Positions 6,659-41,081 of a stretch of DNA of 64,000 bases are shown here, piece by piece. Where the stretch lies: contig CBDAOB010000003.1 in the NCBI GenBank assembly GCA_965197905.1, positions 320,001 to 384,000 of the forward strand. The letters run 5' to 3'. Source of the DNA: Candidatus Latescibacterota bacterium (GTDB lineage Bacteria > Latescibacterota > UBA2968 > UBA8231). Every line of letters starts with the position of its first letter. Within the stretch, counting starts at the first letter, position 1. The translations under genes and the position numbers were made by a program. The notes under the pieces are model-generated. The model was not told the DNA's origin and did not search any database. It saw only the letters and a list, made by a program, of their open reading frames with translations.

Positions 6659-8192
6659 CTAGTGTTGCGTCGCAGCGATTCCTTCACAAAGTCGTTTGAT
6701 CTTTGCGAGGATGGAATCTGCCGTTGCGGTCCAGGCGAACGGGGCCGCGTTGGCGTTCCAGTGGTCGGTGAAGCGCTCGATTCGGCGGATCAACTCCTTC
6801 ACCTTACGGAAGGAGCCGCGTCGAATGGCGCGCTGGGTGATGATGTTGAACCAGATCTCGACCTGGTTGAGCCAGGAAGCGTAGGTCGGCGTGAAGTGGA
6901 TGTGGAAACGTGGATGTTTGGCCAACCACACTTTGACCTTGGCGTGCTTGTGGGTCCCGTAGTTGTCGACGACGATGTGGAGGTCCAGGTCTTCGGGGAC
7001 GTTGCCGTCAATGTGGCGTAAGAACTGCAGGAATTCCTGATGACGATGCCGTGGTTTGCACTGCGTCAGGACTTCCCCGGTTTCGATATCCAGCGCGGCG
7101 AACAGCGTCGTGGTGCCGTGTCGCTTGTAGTCGTGGGTCACGCCCTCGACGTATCCCAGGCCGAGAGGCAACATCGGTTGGGACCGTTCCAACGCCTGGA
7201 TCTGGCTCTTCTCGTCGACGCACAACACCATGGATCAACTCCTTCACCTTACGGAAGGAGCCGCGTCGAATGGCGCGCTGGGTGATGATGTTGAACCAGA
7301 TCTCGACCTGGTTGAGCCAGGAAGCGTAGGTCGGCGTGAAGTGGATGTGGAAACGTGGATGTTTGGCCAACCACACTTTGACCTTGGCGTGCTTGTGGGT
7401 CCCGTAGTTGTCGACGACGATGTGGAGGTCCAGGTCTTCGGGGACGTTGCCGTCAATGTGGCGTAAGAACTGCAGGAATTCCTGATGACGATGCCGTGGT
7501 TTGCACTGCGTCAGGACTTCCCCGGTTTCGATATCCAGCGCGGCGAACAGCGTCGTGGTGCCGTGTCGCTTGTAGTCGTGGGTCACGCCCTCGACGTATC
7601 CCAGGCCGAGAGGCAACATCGGTTGGGACCGTTCCAACGCCTGGATCTGGCTCTTCTCGTCGACGCACAACACCATGGCGCGCTCGGGGGGATGCAGGTA
7701 CAGACCGACGATGTCGCGTACCTTTTCTACGAAGAACGGATCTGTGGAGAGTTTGAAGTGCGTCCGACGGTGGGGTTGCAAACCAAAAGCACGCCAGATG
7801 CGATGGACTGTGTCCTTCGACAACCTGGTCTCGTCTGCCATCGAGCGTACCGACCACTGGGTCTGTTCCGGTGGCTTGGTATTGAAGGTTTTGTATACGA
7901 CTTCGGCCACCTGCTCATCCTCAATCGTCCGCGGTCCACCTGGGCGGACTTCGTCGTACAGGCCGCTCAGACCTCGATCCAGAAACCGCCGGCGCCACTT
8001 GCCCACCGTCGCTCGCGATACGCTCAGTGCCTGCGCGATATCCTGGTTGGGCCATCCGTCAGCGGCCAACAGCACGATCTCCGAGCGGCGCACGAGCCCA
8101 TGCGAAAGGCTGCGTGACCTGGTCATGGATTCCAACTGCTCTCGGGTCTGCTCACTCAACTCCACCGGTGCCATCGGTCGGCCGATTGCCAT
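6659..8192 (-). pseudogene. IS630 transposase disrupted by a 445-bp tandem duplication
   Basis: 6787-7233 is repeated at 7232-7678; ORFs 7008..8192 and 6659..7231. Confidence 0.9.
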
Positions 8193-27942: not shown

Positions 27943-28494
27943 TCATGCCGAAATACTTTGCCGCTTCGATTCAATTGCTGGTTTGGTGGCCTCGTACGCG
28001 GAATCCGTCAACTGGTTTCTGGATCGTTCGACTTTTCGCTCGAAGACATCGAGCTCGTCATGCGTAAATTCAAGCCTCGGCATAAACTCGAGGTAGTTTG
28101 CCACCTCCATTTCAATGAGGTCGCGCAGTTCAGCTTGGGTAACTGGAATCTCCTCGTTAGTTGCCCGGTTACTAAGTTTCGCATCACCATCTCCCAGAGC
28201 CTCAAAGAAGCCTGCGCGAATGGTCATGCTGAACAGGAACGCTAAACGCTCTGCTCGTTCCCCAATCACCTCGCGGATACGTTGACGATCATCGAGTGAA
28301 GCCGATTCCGTCTCGTAGGATTGCGTGCCATAGATGCTGTGAAACAGCCCACTCACGCAAACGGCCTTATCATTGCCCCAGGTCTTGAGGTAGCCATGAG
28401 TTCCTTGTAGATGATCCAATAAGGCCCCGCCGCTGTGCGGGTTCTTCTCAGTATTCAGCTCATGTAGCAGCTGCAAGTGACTCTGATCAATCAT
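27943..28494 (-). CDS. HD-like hypothetical protein (DUF6817-like)
   Basis: HSGG.LLDHL.GT..GLFHSIYGT..IGERAERL. Confidence 0.7.
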   Translation of the reverse strand: MIDQSHLQLLHELNTEKNPHSGGALLDHLQGTHGYLKTWGNDKAVCVSGLFHSIYGTQSYETESASLDDRQRIREVIGERAERLAFLFSMTIRAGFFEALGDGDAKLSNRATNEEIPVTQAELRDLIEMEVANYLEFMPRLEFTHDELDVFERKVERSRNQLTDSAYEATKPAIESKRQSISA

Positions 28495-28536: not shown

Positions 28537-29446
28537 TCATAACGTTGCCACCGTTCCCCAACCGCGAATGCGGTTGCGCGAAGGGTGCATGGCCGAAGCC
28601 GGGTAGGGTCGAGGACTGGCGCGCCAGCATTAGGGTCCGGTGGGTACTCCATCACTTTCGCAATGGCCCTCAGTCCGGCTCCCATCGTCACGTTTCCAGC
28701 CCCCGCCGCTTCAAACCGTACGTGAGGTTCTCCCTCATACGGCTTACCGACAACCTTCAGCTTGTAGCATGCGAGACTTGGATTGTTCGGCCCATCACGA
28801 CCGACCACATGCGACCAGGGCCGAATAATCTACCTCTCTTGGCAGTCAAGCATAGCCTGCGCAGGAGTTATCGTGATTTGTGAAGTGGTGTGGTTGGCCC
28901 TCTCGGGCATGCACCGTCACTTACCTCCTCGCTGGGCATGGTTGAAGCAGGGATCCTTCCCTCCGACCGAGTTATGTTGTCTCGATCATCCACGGTAGTA
29001 TGACCCCCTCCGACTTCTCATGGGACATCTTCCCGGATTTCACCTTCCGGCTTATACCAGAAATTACAGCGGATGTGGGCCGCTGATCCCATGAGATCTC
29101 CCTTGTTCCACCACTGACTGTCCCCACATTCCACTCCCTCTACGCCGGAGAGTCCTTCGAGGTTGCACGTCCAGATTCTTCACCTCTTCCGTGGCCTTCG
29201 CCCTCCGTGCCCTGGGCTCGGCTCTCTCTGGTCCCTTTCGGGTTAACATTACGACGCGGCAGGATTCCCTTGATGGTACGGACTATGGGGTTGCACCTCG
29301 TTCACAGAGGGATACACCGCTTCAGCACCTCCAGTCACCCGGAAGCACTGGGCGCCTGCTATGGGGCTCTCTGGTGATTACCCCAACCGGACTTTCACCG
29401 GTAAGTCAATGGCAGCTTGCAAGGCACACGCACGGTCGTGTTAGCC
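28537..29446. repeat. attC-like site split by a group II intron
   Basis: Removing 28603-29429 restores GGCTAACACGACCGTGC|CCGGCTTCGG..GTTATGA, matching intact family A sites. Confidence 0.8.
28603..29429 (-). ncRNA. ORF-less group II intron (~827 nt)
   Basis: 5' GTGTG; domain V AAGCCGTATGAGGGAGAACCTCACGTACGGTTT (28745-28713); long domain VI; 3' end CCCTAC; no RT ORF. Confidence 0.85.
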
Positions 29447-29475: not shown

Positions 29476-30507
29476 TCATGACAGCGCATCCTGGATTACG
29501 GTCGCTTCGTTAAGCCAAAAGCGCATGAAACGAACGACCCGGTCGCACTCCGCCATCTCCTCCTCACTTGCTGGCACTTGAGCCCCGCCAGCTGTTGGCC
29601 ACATAGCAGCACAAATGTATGGAAACAGCTCTATCTCCCTTTGGCTCAGTGGGGGTCCTTCCTGGAGATAGCAGTTAACCCAGTGCGCAACGTCGCTTAC
29701 AACTGGTATTTCAGTGCGTTGCCACGTGAAGCCGTCGTAATCCTCAACGAGAGGACCCCATCCAAGCCCAATGTCGATGGCACGAGCGACGTCCTGTATC
29801 CTTGGCGCTAACCTGGCCGTGTCCCAGTCGATCACGCCAACGACGGCATCACCGTCATAGCGACAGTGGTACTGACAGAACTCGCCGTGCACTGGCACGT
29901 GGGGTAACGTGAACCAGTCCTCCAGAATCAGAAATGACCTGATATTGAAAAGGATCTCACGCATCTCATCTATGCACTCGAGTACAATCTGCCGGCTTGA
30001 GGTCGAAATCTGACTGTCTCTCAGATACCCCCGCCCATTGTGGTTGAAGGCCTGGGAATACTCGAATCCCTCGTCGCAGTCCCAGTAACATTTGCCTAGG
30101 CCGCAAGCGACACTCGCCTCGCGATGAAACCACCCTTAAGCGGCGGCACAGGTATCGCATTGTTTCGGTCTTCTTCGTGGGTCAAAGGGCTCCCCAACCC
30201 ACTCCACCACAAAAGCGCCAAGATCGTTTCGATCCCAGACCACATCACCCTCGACAGTACGTAACACGGCAGGGATTGGATACCCGATCTCGTGGAGATA
30301 CCACTGAAGGTCAAATTTGAAACTCGTATCCGAGTCGAACACACCGGTCCATCCGGTCTTCGCAATGTAACGCTGAGAGCCTACAGAAAAACCGATCACA
30401 TGCTCGTGGCGTGGTCTGAACACATGAATGTCGTGAGGTTCGCCTTGCAGACCATAGGCGGCGACGAGTGTGTCCACTATTTCGGCCGCAGCCGAATCCG
30501 TTGTCAT
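29476..30507 (-). pseudogene. aminoglycoside phosphotransferase/homoserine kinase-like protein, frameshifted
   Basis: VHGEF..GVIDWD; N-terminal half in a separate ORF. Confidence 0.75.
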
Positions 30508-30552
30508 GCCAACGCTACTTTTGTGGCGATGTCCCTAACAAAAATTGCTCTC

Positions 30553-30645
30553 GGCTAACGTTCTCGCCGTGCCCGAACCGCGAAGCGGTTGCGCGAAGGG
30601 CGAGCCCCGAATCGCTAACAATAAGCGAGTTGCGGACTAACTGAA
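30553..30645. repeat. attC-like site, family A
   Basis: GGCTAACGTTCTCGCCGTGCCCGAACCGCGAAGCGGTTGCGCGAAGGG. Confidence 0.7.
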
Positions 30646-39764: not shown

Positions 39765-40466
39765 GTTGGCTTTCGCCATAGCCCTCAGTCCGACTCCCAT
39801 CGCTACGTTTCCAGTTCCCGCCGCCTCAAACCGGACGTGCGGATCTCCCGCATCCGGCTTCCCGACGAACGTCACATCCAGGCACACGCCACAAGGACTT
39901 CACCTGGTAGTCAAGCTGCTTCCGATGCATACTAGTCTTACTGCTGGAGGCAATAGGCTCACGCCACTCTCCAACCCTCTGCACTTCCGCAGCATGTCCG
40001 AAGTCAGGCCCCTTCCCTCCACCGGAGTTACCCGGCTTCCTCGGTACTACGCGCCTGTCCGCCACCTCATCCAGCCCAGTCTGGCCCTCGCGGGTTACCG
40101 GTTGGAGGCACTCGCTGCTTCCACCGGATGAGGCTTCCCGTGTTGCGCCACATCTCCTCTTACACACATGCTGTCGCCACTACCCCGGCGGAACAGCTGG
40201 GTGCGCTTGTCGCTCGACTTCCCCAGCTGCAGCGGCCTTCCCTGGTTTACGGGCAGGTCGGCTTCCGCATTACACTTTTCGAGGCCTGCTCAGCGTTTAC
40301 TCACGTTACGGCCTGTGTGCTCGCCAAGTCGCCCAAGGCGACCCTCTACACCGGAGGCTTCAGCGGCTTCGTCGCCTCCACCACTGCTCCGATTGCTACC
40401 GGCTGGAGCGACCCTTGCCGGGTGGGATTCGCACCCACTGAAGATGTGCGCCTTAGCACGGCGCAC
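39765..40466 (-). ncRNA. ORF-less group II intron, 3' end truncated within domain VI
   Basis: 5' GTGCG 12 nt after a GGGTAAC box; domain V AAGCCGGATGCGGGAGATCCGCACGTCCGGTTT (39860-39828). Confidence 0.85.
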
Positions 40467-40526
40467 CGCAAACGGGTTGTTACCCGAAGTATACCCCGTT
40501 CAAGAAGTAGCCCGACATTCCAGGCA

Positions 40527-40883
40527 TTACTTTGTCCGCTCTCGAGGAATGATACGAATTGCGTCATCTAGCCGCTTTGACAGGGGTGCTAAATTTGATC
40601 CTGACCTTGGATCAACTACGAGGATCTTGTAGTCAACTGTAGTATCGGGATAAACTTGAACGATCTTGTAGTCGATGGAGGAATCCGGCTTAACGACGCT
40701 TATAGAATACGCAACGCCCGATTCAGGCACATGTAGTCGAGGCAGTTGTTTCAAAGCATGCTCAACCCTTTCTACTGAGGCGGAGTCACCTTGAACGACG
40801 AGGGGTAACGGAGCTTCAGTTGGCTCGCCACAGCCACTGACGGAAATTGCCCCTATAGTTAGCATCCGAATTGCTCTTCTCAT
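40527..40883 (-). CDS. putative lipoprotein
   Basis: Lipobox-like VSGC; internal PDxxxDYKI repeat. Confidence 0.6.
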   Translation of the reverse strand: MRRAIRMLTIGAISVSGCGEPTEAPLPLVVQGDSASVERVEHALKQLPRLHVPESGVAYSISVVKPDSSIDYKIVQVYPDTTVDYKILVVDPRSGSNLAPLSKRLDDAIRIIPRERTK

Positions 40884-40911
40884 TGTCGTTTCAATCTTCT
40901 CATATTTCGGG

Positions 40912-41081
40912 ATCACGGTAGGACGACCGGTTACCCGACCGCCCCCGCACAGATCCCGGCGAGCGGAATTACCGCACCGGGCTCTTCGAAGGTATTCGCT
41001 TGCGCACCCACACACCATCAGGAGGCGAGCTCAGTAATGCGTGGTGACACTAGGTGAAAGTGGTCCAATACCTGCACGCAC
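40912..41081 (-). ncRNA. group II intron remnant (~170 nt: 5' end plus domains V-VI)
   Basis: GAGCCCGGTGCGGTAATTCCGCTCGCCGGGATCT and GGGGCGGTCGGGTAACCGGTCGTCCTACCGTGAT; GTGCG at 41081. Confidence 0.75.

Follow-up and report, generated by a model that had tools for sequence, protein, structure and literature searches.

An ORF-less IIF-like group II intron inside the top strand of an integron attC site in a Latescibacterota genome

The window analyzed here, a stretch of 64,000 nucleotides from a Candidatus Latescibacterota genome, carries an integron cassette array in which one attC site is split by a group II intron, designated intron A. The locus is composed of the following features:

29476..29964, minus strand: upstream cassette ORF, the C-terminal part of an APH-family phosphotransferase, with its stop 30 nt before R''
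29440..29446, minus strand: attC R'' box GGCTAAC; TAACA (29443-29439) is IBS2
28603..29429, minus strand: ORF-less IIF-like group II intron A, domains I-VI, 827 nt (Rfam matches and consensus fold)
29374-29370, minus strand: alpha (CCAGA) of intron A, from the fold
29175-29171, minus strand: alpha' (TCTGG) of intron A, in a terminal loop of the fold
28748..28945, minus strand: domain IV (DIV), with an RBS, DIVa and frameshifted N- and C-terminal RT remnants
28712..28745, minus strand: domain V (DV), 34 nt, with an AGC triad and a 5-nt GAGAA loop
28605..28709, minus strand: long domain VI (DVI), ~105 nt, with the branch A at 28609
28537..28602, minus strand: attC 3' part, comprising the L'' remainder, terminal structure, L' and R' (GTTATGA at 28543-28537)
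27943..28494, minus strand: downstream cassette gene, coding for a DUF6817 protein

The intron runs from GTGTG at 29429 to CCCTAC at 28603 on the minus strand and is found once in the 6.69-Mb genome assembly, which is 91% complete. A first-pass annotation made from the letters alone had described it as an 827-nt ORF-less group II intron with an AGC triad and an unusually long DVI. This description holds in full: all six domains were found, and the two pertinent Rfam models both score above their cut-offs, namely group-II-D1D4-4 over domain I (69 bits; cut-off 49) and Intron_gpII over domain V/VI (42.4 bits; cut-off 40). Domains I to III (DI-DIII) are complete, with compensatory changes in 64 of the 135 pairs predicted by a consensus fold of 13 related sequences. 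The sequence hallmarks of group II introns are present: GUGYG...AY ends, the DV triad, a bulged A in DVI (7 nt before the intron end) and covarying DI-DIII. DV is 97% identical to that of its A-lineage relatives L153 and L159.

What intron A lacks is a reverse transcriptase (RT). The longest stop-free stretch on its sense strand is 75 codons, and its DIV is ~1.15 kb shorter than in the RT-bearing relatives, whose proteins of ~430 aa comprise only the RVT_1 and GIIM domains. That only frameshifted remnants persist in DIV agrees with the earlier designation of the element as non-autonomous. An RT dropped in assembly, the circumstance singled out earlier as fatal to this view, was rejected on the basis of sequencing runs, four of 19 of which were compared, as contigs (runs with a share <0.2 were left out). 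In run X3, which stems from a different study than X1 and X2, a 756-nt contig corresponds to 28674-29429 with 0 differences, and hence the ORF loss is real; contigs from X5 and X7 likewise span the shortened DIV.

Joining the two exons regenerates an 83-bp attC of the main family of the genome (family A), with a score of 65.8 bits on a profile made from nine empty sites of that family; this profile has 31 matches in the genome. The insertion lies in the top strand, 10 nt after GGCTAAC and after the fifth base of L'', exactly as the first-pass annotation had placed it. The rebuilt site displays the order R''-spacer-L''...L'-spacer-R' with conserved AAC/GTT, and its repeats stand between co-oriented ORFs. 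Its L' has a few mismatches to the family consensus, and the predicted bottom-strand fold falls short of an ideal hairpin. The cassette genes to either side share the strand of the intron, which bears out the co-orientation noted before; the upstream phosphotransferase ORF (window 29476-30560, minus strand) is broken up over different frames. The array is CALIN-like, given that ~85 kb separate it from the nearest intact intI (C3:204281-205219; above the curated cut-off). Elsewhere, the window contains a 300-nt exact direct repeat at 6787-7531 with a 445-nt spacing, and its further repeat families D2, D7, D9 and D13 may be other attC types.

The placement of the intron within the attC is matched by complementarity between intron and exons at three positions:

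29430..29435, minus strand: IBS1 (CCGTGC), the last spacer base and the first 5 nt of L''
29205..29210, minus strand: EBS1 (GCACGG), within the terminal loop that caps the ID3 hairpin
29244..29248, minus strand: EBS2 (UGUUA), single-stranded in the consensus fold, pairing with TAACA of R''
29140..29140, minus strand: EBS3 (G), pairing with the first 3' exon base, C

The EBS1 complementary to the 5' exon end that had been anticipated thus exists (GCACGG with CCGTGC). EBS3 and IBS3 are paired in nine of ten relatives (G-C in seven and U-A in two; the EBS3 of L163 was taken from the sequence alignment), and the 5-pair EBS2/IBS2 helix is 80% paired across a 17-sequence alignment versus 12-42% when slid. 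We then drew on metagenomes scanned with a pattern that places no constraint on EBS1 or EBS2; this yielded at least 124 matches, with 72 BLAST-related to A among the matches listed. The 5' ends were placed by hand in 54 loci among the matches listed, giving 51 distinct exons once loci without a 5' end and duplicates were left out; these were grouped by the first 10 nt of the intron into an A group (n=28) and others (n=23). Among these matches, a YAAC motif at -16 to -9 from the cut is found in 25 of 28 exons of the A group and in 0 of 23 from the sister clades, and an EBS2 with GTTA in 25 of 28 as against 1 of 23.

Over the 51 exons from the matches listed, and with relatedness ignored, the mean EBS2/IBS2 duplex is 4.76 bp versus 3.36 bp when permuted, and the mean EBS1/IBS1 duplex 4.53 versus 3.10 bp, with 0 of 2000 permutations reaching the observed value in either case. 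Inside the A group (same matches, relatedness again ignored) EBS2 is nearly constant, its observed value being reached by 34 of 2000 permutations, and EBS1 covaries with the exon (0 of 2000); L205 and L218 show compensatory EBS2/IBS2 changes. Among the matches listed, six of the eight complete A-lineage members (A, L165, L166, L190, L261 and L153) rebuild an R''...R' site, although that of L153 has a poor predicted hairpin; of the other two, L163 is without R' and L159 lies outside an attC. RT-bearing members of the lineage rebuild textbook attC sites. These counts sustain the earlier proposal of top-strand attC targeting. A scan of the short metagenome flanks for neighboring attCs found them in 2 of 18 versus 0 of 14; having missed those next to A itself, it tells nothing either way. 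Given that the EBS2-IBS2 pairing is dispensable for self-splicing in the IIE/IIF introns tested in PMC3753933, a role for EBS2 in homing is something that we infer. An A-like ORF-less intron is also seen after a TAAC box at L108:1138-2700, with a second ORF-less intron nested at its DV end.

As to class, a 5-nt DV loop and an alpha' in a terminal loop are described as IIE/IIF traits and a long DVI as a tendency of IIF (PMC3753933), and intron A displays all three; we assign it as IIF-like and not IIC. Class C was rejected on the AGC triad, the covarying EBS2 and an RT clade apart from the IIC-like RTs, of which the tree has three, labeled from their RNA and not from a named reference; the call of a non-IIC element made at the outset is upheld by the same features. 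The bottom-strand antisense insertion at TTGT/T that characterizes IIC-attC introns is likewise not what is seen here, A being inserted in the top strand inside L''.

In a quick tree of 50 rows the A-lineage RTs form a clade (SH-aLRT 99) apart from the IIC-like RTs. Their sister clade (97) consists of introns in which an EBS2 of AAAAAGG is paired to the T-tract of a terminator. In this tree, which uses g1, g2, g3 and Rh.sp.I1 references from the table of PMC3552965, the A-lineage clade groups with none of these four. We therefore speak of the lineage as IIF-like and, as judged against these references, unclassified. The best 120 matches to the L190 RT are at least 74% identical to it. A member of the same RT clade at ~60% identity is common on Leptospira plasmids (L265, L266), where its 5' end is altered and its target is not an attC.

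Relatives beyond the A lineage show other targets. The non-IIC introns L181, L192, L196, L229, L198, L157 and L213 lie directly after intrinsic terminators and pair the T-tract with EBS2 (AAAAAGG) or EBS1, which we read as convergence on the IIC niche via base pairing. In a sister group with a longer 5' end (L164, L195, L199, L211, L222, L235, L252) an EBS2 with GGCUA pairs with CTAGC-containing exons, possibly reflecting stop-codon targeting. The unclassified U1/U2 and g6 introns reported after terminators in PMC8919778 may include the terminator sister clade of the A lineage.

With such relatives, one might argue that the A lineage itself really targets stop codons or gene ends through the TAA, and that the attC is incidental. 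The R'' box often overlaps the stop codon of its cassette, and the sister clades pair their EBS2 with TAG-containing exons or terminator T-tracts. Moreover, a stop-codon-specialized IIB1 family exists (PMC12584367). However, the gene at A ends 30 nt earlier, EBS1 matches L''-type sequence, the complete sites rebuild attC hairpins, and the stop-less variants CCAAC and CCATC still covary with EBS2. This makes stop-codon homing quite improbable as an account of the lineage.

If intron A is to move, its RT has to come from elsewhere. The 13 RT matches in the genome comprise 11 copies of a g1 intron, whose targets are other than those of A, one lone RT that we take from its motifs to be class E-like, and one g3-type intron, C. 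The RT-encoding relative that the first-pass annotation had expected in the genome did not materialize: no RT of A's lineage was found in the 91%-complete assembly, the best genome RT being 39-42% identical to A-lineage RTs. Neither the g1 intron with its 11 copies nor the class E-like RT was retained as a cognate driver of A (35-42% identity to A-lineage RTs; other targets). A single query across 168 genomes of the phylum returned no cognate RT above 46% identity, and the genome G116 (97% complete) has an ORF-less relative and no RT at all.

Other samples show intron A in different surroundings. In X3 its contig has a depth of 20.6 versus 4.4-6.7 for the flanks (contig depths, which are not copy numbers), and on short contigs another 5' exon, similar to the first, likewise adjoins its 5' end; in X5 it is present without these flanking genes. 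The metatranscriptomes X6 and X7, labeled sponge metagenome, yield intron pieces only, with the flanks uncovered and DNA carry-over possible; the contigs of these RNA runs list no joined exon, and as the exon flanks are outside their coverage they are no evidence either way. Near-identical A at different sites hence amounts to one copy in this genome, and to the second 5' exon and the flank-less presence on short contigs of other runs. Mobilization of A in trans is, for this genome, a conjecture: the assembly offers no A-lineage RT and the perfect targets are empty, although A occurs at other sites in other samples.

The same data allow intron A to be viewed as an immobile relic, inserted when a cognate RT existed and now moving only inside fused cassette blocks. 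Consistent with this are the single copy alongside nine empty perfect family-A attC targets (intron B, discussed below, leaves one perfect target empty for 13 copies), the lack of a cognate RT in the assembly or the 168 genomes of the phylum, the drifted L' arm and the RT-free genome G116 with its relative. Against it stand the identical intron pieces that are joined to a different 5' exon in X3 and lack the flanks seen here in X5, X6 and X7, as well as the intact structure and the DIV of similar length, at ~80% identity, kept by five or more ORF-less relatives (A, L153, L163, L208, L261); on balance, we regard this view as unlikely. Because these ORF-less forms are scattered among RT-bearing ones in the DI-DIII tree, either repeated deletion or domain exchange appears to have produced them.

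A second ORF-less intron, B (749 nt; g3-type), is present in the genome in 12 near-identical copies that are complete and in one that is truncated, the latter in the window:

39770..40466, minus strand: intron B copy, 3'-truncated, in the top strand after an R'' box

Judged by eye, as was its EBS2 pairing, eight of the 13 B copies lie after the R'' box in the top strand of a second attC family and five elsewhere; some sit in non-attC genes. The RT-bearing g3-type intron C stands head-to-tail behind an ORF-less B copy (G000 C3:1186425-1189158) and is 91% identical to B over the first 467 nt. Thus, a close RT-encoding relative within one genome, as typifies TeI3, was found for B and not for A, and B with C fits the TeI3/TeI4 model of trans-mobilization directly. 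Tandem ORF-less g3-type introns like B-C are also seen in a Paracoccaceae MAG (L082, L083). A cassette with a B copy recurs in two arrays at 99.6% identity (window 39770-40911 and G000 C2:6776-7922); the window copy has lost the attC 3' arm together with the final 52 nt of B. Next to it, window 40912-41040 (minus strand) contains a DV-DVI 3' remnant of another group II intron, presumably class E-like from its motifs, which directly abuts the sequence found after GTTA of R' in the C2 copy of the cassette, which is intact, and suggests a third kind of top-strand insertion, at R'. A lone DV-DVI match at G000 C5:668275-668349 (55.6 bits; no RT ORF upstream) is probably yet another intron remnant.

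A comparison of A with the g3-type introns points to domain exchange. The DI-DIII of A is 86-88% identical to that of L153/L159 versus 59-60% to that of B and C; its DVI, in contrast, shows 83-93% identity to g3 introns (92.6% to the one in G006 and 87% to B) and 62% to L153/L159. As the switch falls at the end of DV, we consider intron A a mosaic with a DVI of the g3 type. The DVI insert (window 28633-28683) forms a conserved, covarying hairpin module found at ~60 loci among L037-L138. The module, at times present in duplicate, recurs in DVI across several intron types that are unrelated, and also in IIC-like introns, there in domain II; no Rfam family matches it at E<=1. The same module is carried by L261 in a genome without any RT.

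A sub-case of mobilization in trans would accordingly have the unrelated g3-type RT of intron C drive A, aided by the DVI gained through recombination. The A-lineage DI-DIII joined at the end of DV to a g3-like DVI fits this, as does C being the only intact RT in the genome with a g3-type DVI and the one driving the 13 near-identical B copies; further, the unbroken X3 contig speaks against a near-identical RT-bearing A in that sample. Yet, the DIVa of A is of the A-lineage type, and DIVa is the main protein-binding site in studied introns, where known drivers act on introns 85-100% alike (PMC2882425). Likewise, A is unspread in this genome despite C, and L261 has the DVI module without an RT. 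We hold C to be a doubtful driver of A.

All 14 A and B copies are on the locally G-rich strand versus 4 of the 11 g1 copies, where the 14 copies amount to ~8 separate regions and the GC skew is weak and patchy. This placement fits reverse splicing of En-less introns with the lagging-strand template as target (PMC8914252), and also the way in which chromosomal arrays are usually oriented, the bottom strand being on the leading template in 25 of 30 (PMC5371416). It is also conceivable that the host has domesticated the intron as a lock that fixes cassette order while splicing preserves the array transcript, given that ORF-less forms persist in several genomes, one of them without any RT. With the upstream gene in pieces, insertion sites that differ between samples and B copies that also sit in non-attC genes, such a role is highly improbable.

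Taken together, we consider it probable that intron A is a selfish, non-autonomous deletion derivative of an En-less, IIF-like lineage specialized on attC top strands. At the level of sequence, the ORF loss, the intact fold, the EBS1-3 complementarity and the lineage-wide insertion register are established; the lineage itself appears to be widespread, barely described and to find attC by RNA-DNA base pairing. Under this proposal, A would be transcribed together with the cassettes, its EBS2 would read the one conserved attC motif (the R'' core), its EBS1 would drift to fit the L'' sequence of the local attC family, and the RT would be supplied in trans. The integrase needs paired R and L boxes (PMC5371416); because L'' is split, the bottom-strand hairpin should no longer form, and it is sound to expect blocked cassette recombination, with the two cassettes beside A fused as far as the integrase is concerned. 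Lying outside coding sequence, the insertion would come at little cost. As the cognate RT is missing from the assembly, A may be at most weakly active, or stranded, in this genome.

Going further, we tentatively entertain a wider scenario, which we think unlikely to hold as a whole: two unrelated En-less lineages would have independently evolved RNA-guided homing to attC top strands, each taking one of the two attC families in a shared array, and would have exchanged DVI, such that A is mobilized by the RT of the other class. The A lineage would then belong to a radiation whose branches have adapted EBS2 to different signals at gene ends (attC R'', terminator T-tract, TAG stop).

Sequence is hardly conserved among attC sites, which are recognized by their structure, and the known invading introns read the bottom-strand structure. 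In contrast, the A lineage appears to read the few conserved attC bases by RNA-DNA pairing on the sense strand. An intron in this orientation, transcribed with the array, could fuse cassettes without blocking their message; if so, this would be a second route for retroelements to remodel cassette arrays. The lineage also offers a clean test of the role of EBS2 in class F introns, in which it is conserved yet not required for in vitro splicing. In the literature covered, which takes in older papers and supplementary figures incompletely, no class F-like lineage that homes inside attC through pairing of EBS2 with R'' is described; the covered parts of PMC3753933 make no mention of attC or integron targeting by IIF introns, and those of PMC8919778 leave attC unmentioned.

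Top-strand introns in arrays, which the first-pass annotation passed over, are already known from scattered reports. Isolated cases that are top-strand or non-IIC comprise an Enterobacter IIC intron, UHB.I2 and class E fragments (PMC7923331), to which Shewanella arrays add CL1, E and one co-oriented intron (PMC9229058). The present locus contributes the EBS/IBS covariation evidence, the sharing of one array by two lineages and the DVI exchange. The IIC-attC introns, such as S.ma.I2, are like A En-less group II retroelements inside the attC of cassette arrays, but they are of class C with a CGC triad and no EBS2 (PMC3001079, PMC7923331), whereas A has an AGC triad and EBS1, EBS2 and EBS3. They insert antisense into the bottom strand (PMC3001079, PMC4424553), at TTGT/T, and read a DNA hairpin (PMC3001079, PMC7923331), whereas A lies sense-wise in the top-strand L''.

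UHB.I2 (IIB1/CL1) and the class E fragments H.ha.F1/F2 resemble A as non-IIC elements in cassette arrays (PMC7923331), and UHB.I2 is likewise co-oriented with the cassettes (Sonbol and Siam 2021, PMC7923331). However, UHB.I2 is just downstream of an attC, with exons reported as unconserved and an upstream hairpin suggested (PMC7923331), whereas A is inside the attC; further, A belongs to a different RT lineage, and its EBS2 would read R'' with covariation. The class IIF ribozymes Ge.ur.I1, Pe.th.I2 and D.a.I1 share with A the 5-nt DV loop, the alpha' terminal loop and a long, structured DVI (PMC3753933), and unclassified En-less varieties share with its lineage an RT-X protein without En (PMC3552965, PMC4244168, PMC8919778). 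Like A, the ORF-less TeI3 introns, which are mobile in trans with TeI4 driver proteins, arose by ORF deletion that left N- and C-terminal remnants (PMC2882425); unlike TeI3, A has no closely related driver in the assembly. Finally, the Avi.groEL/EcKTE56.groEL lineage is, like that of A, specialized on a genetic signal and not on a single homing site, though it differs in being IIB1, with start/stop codon targets and a large 5' insertion (PMC12584367).
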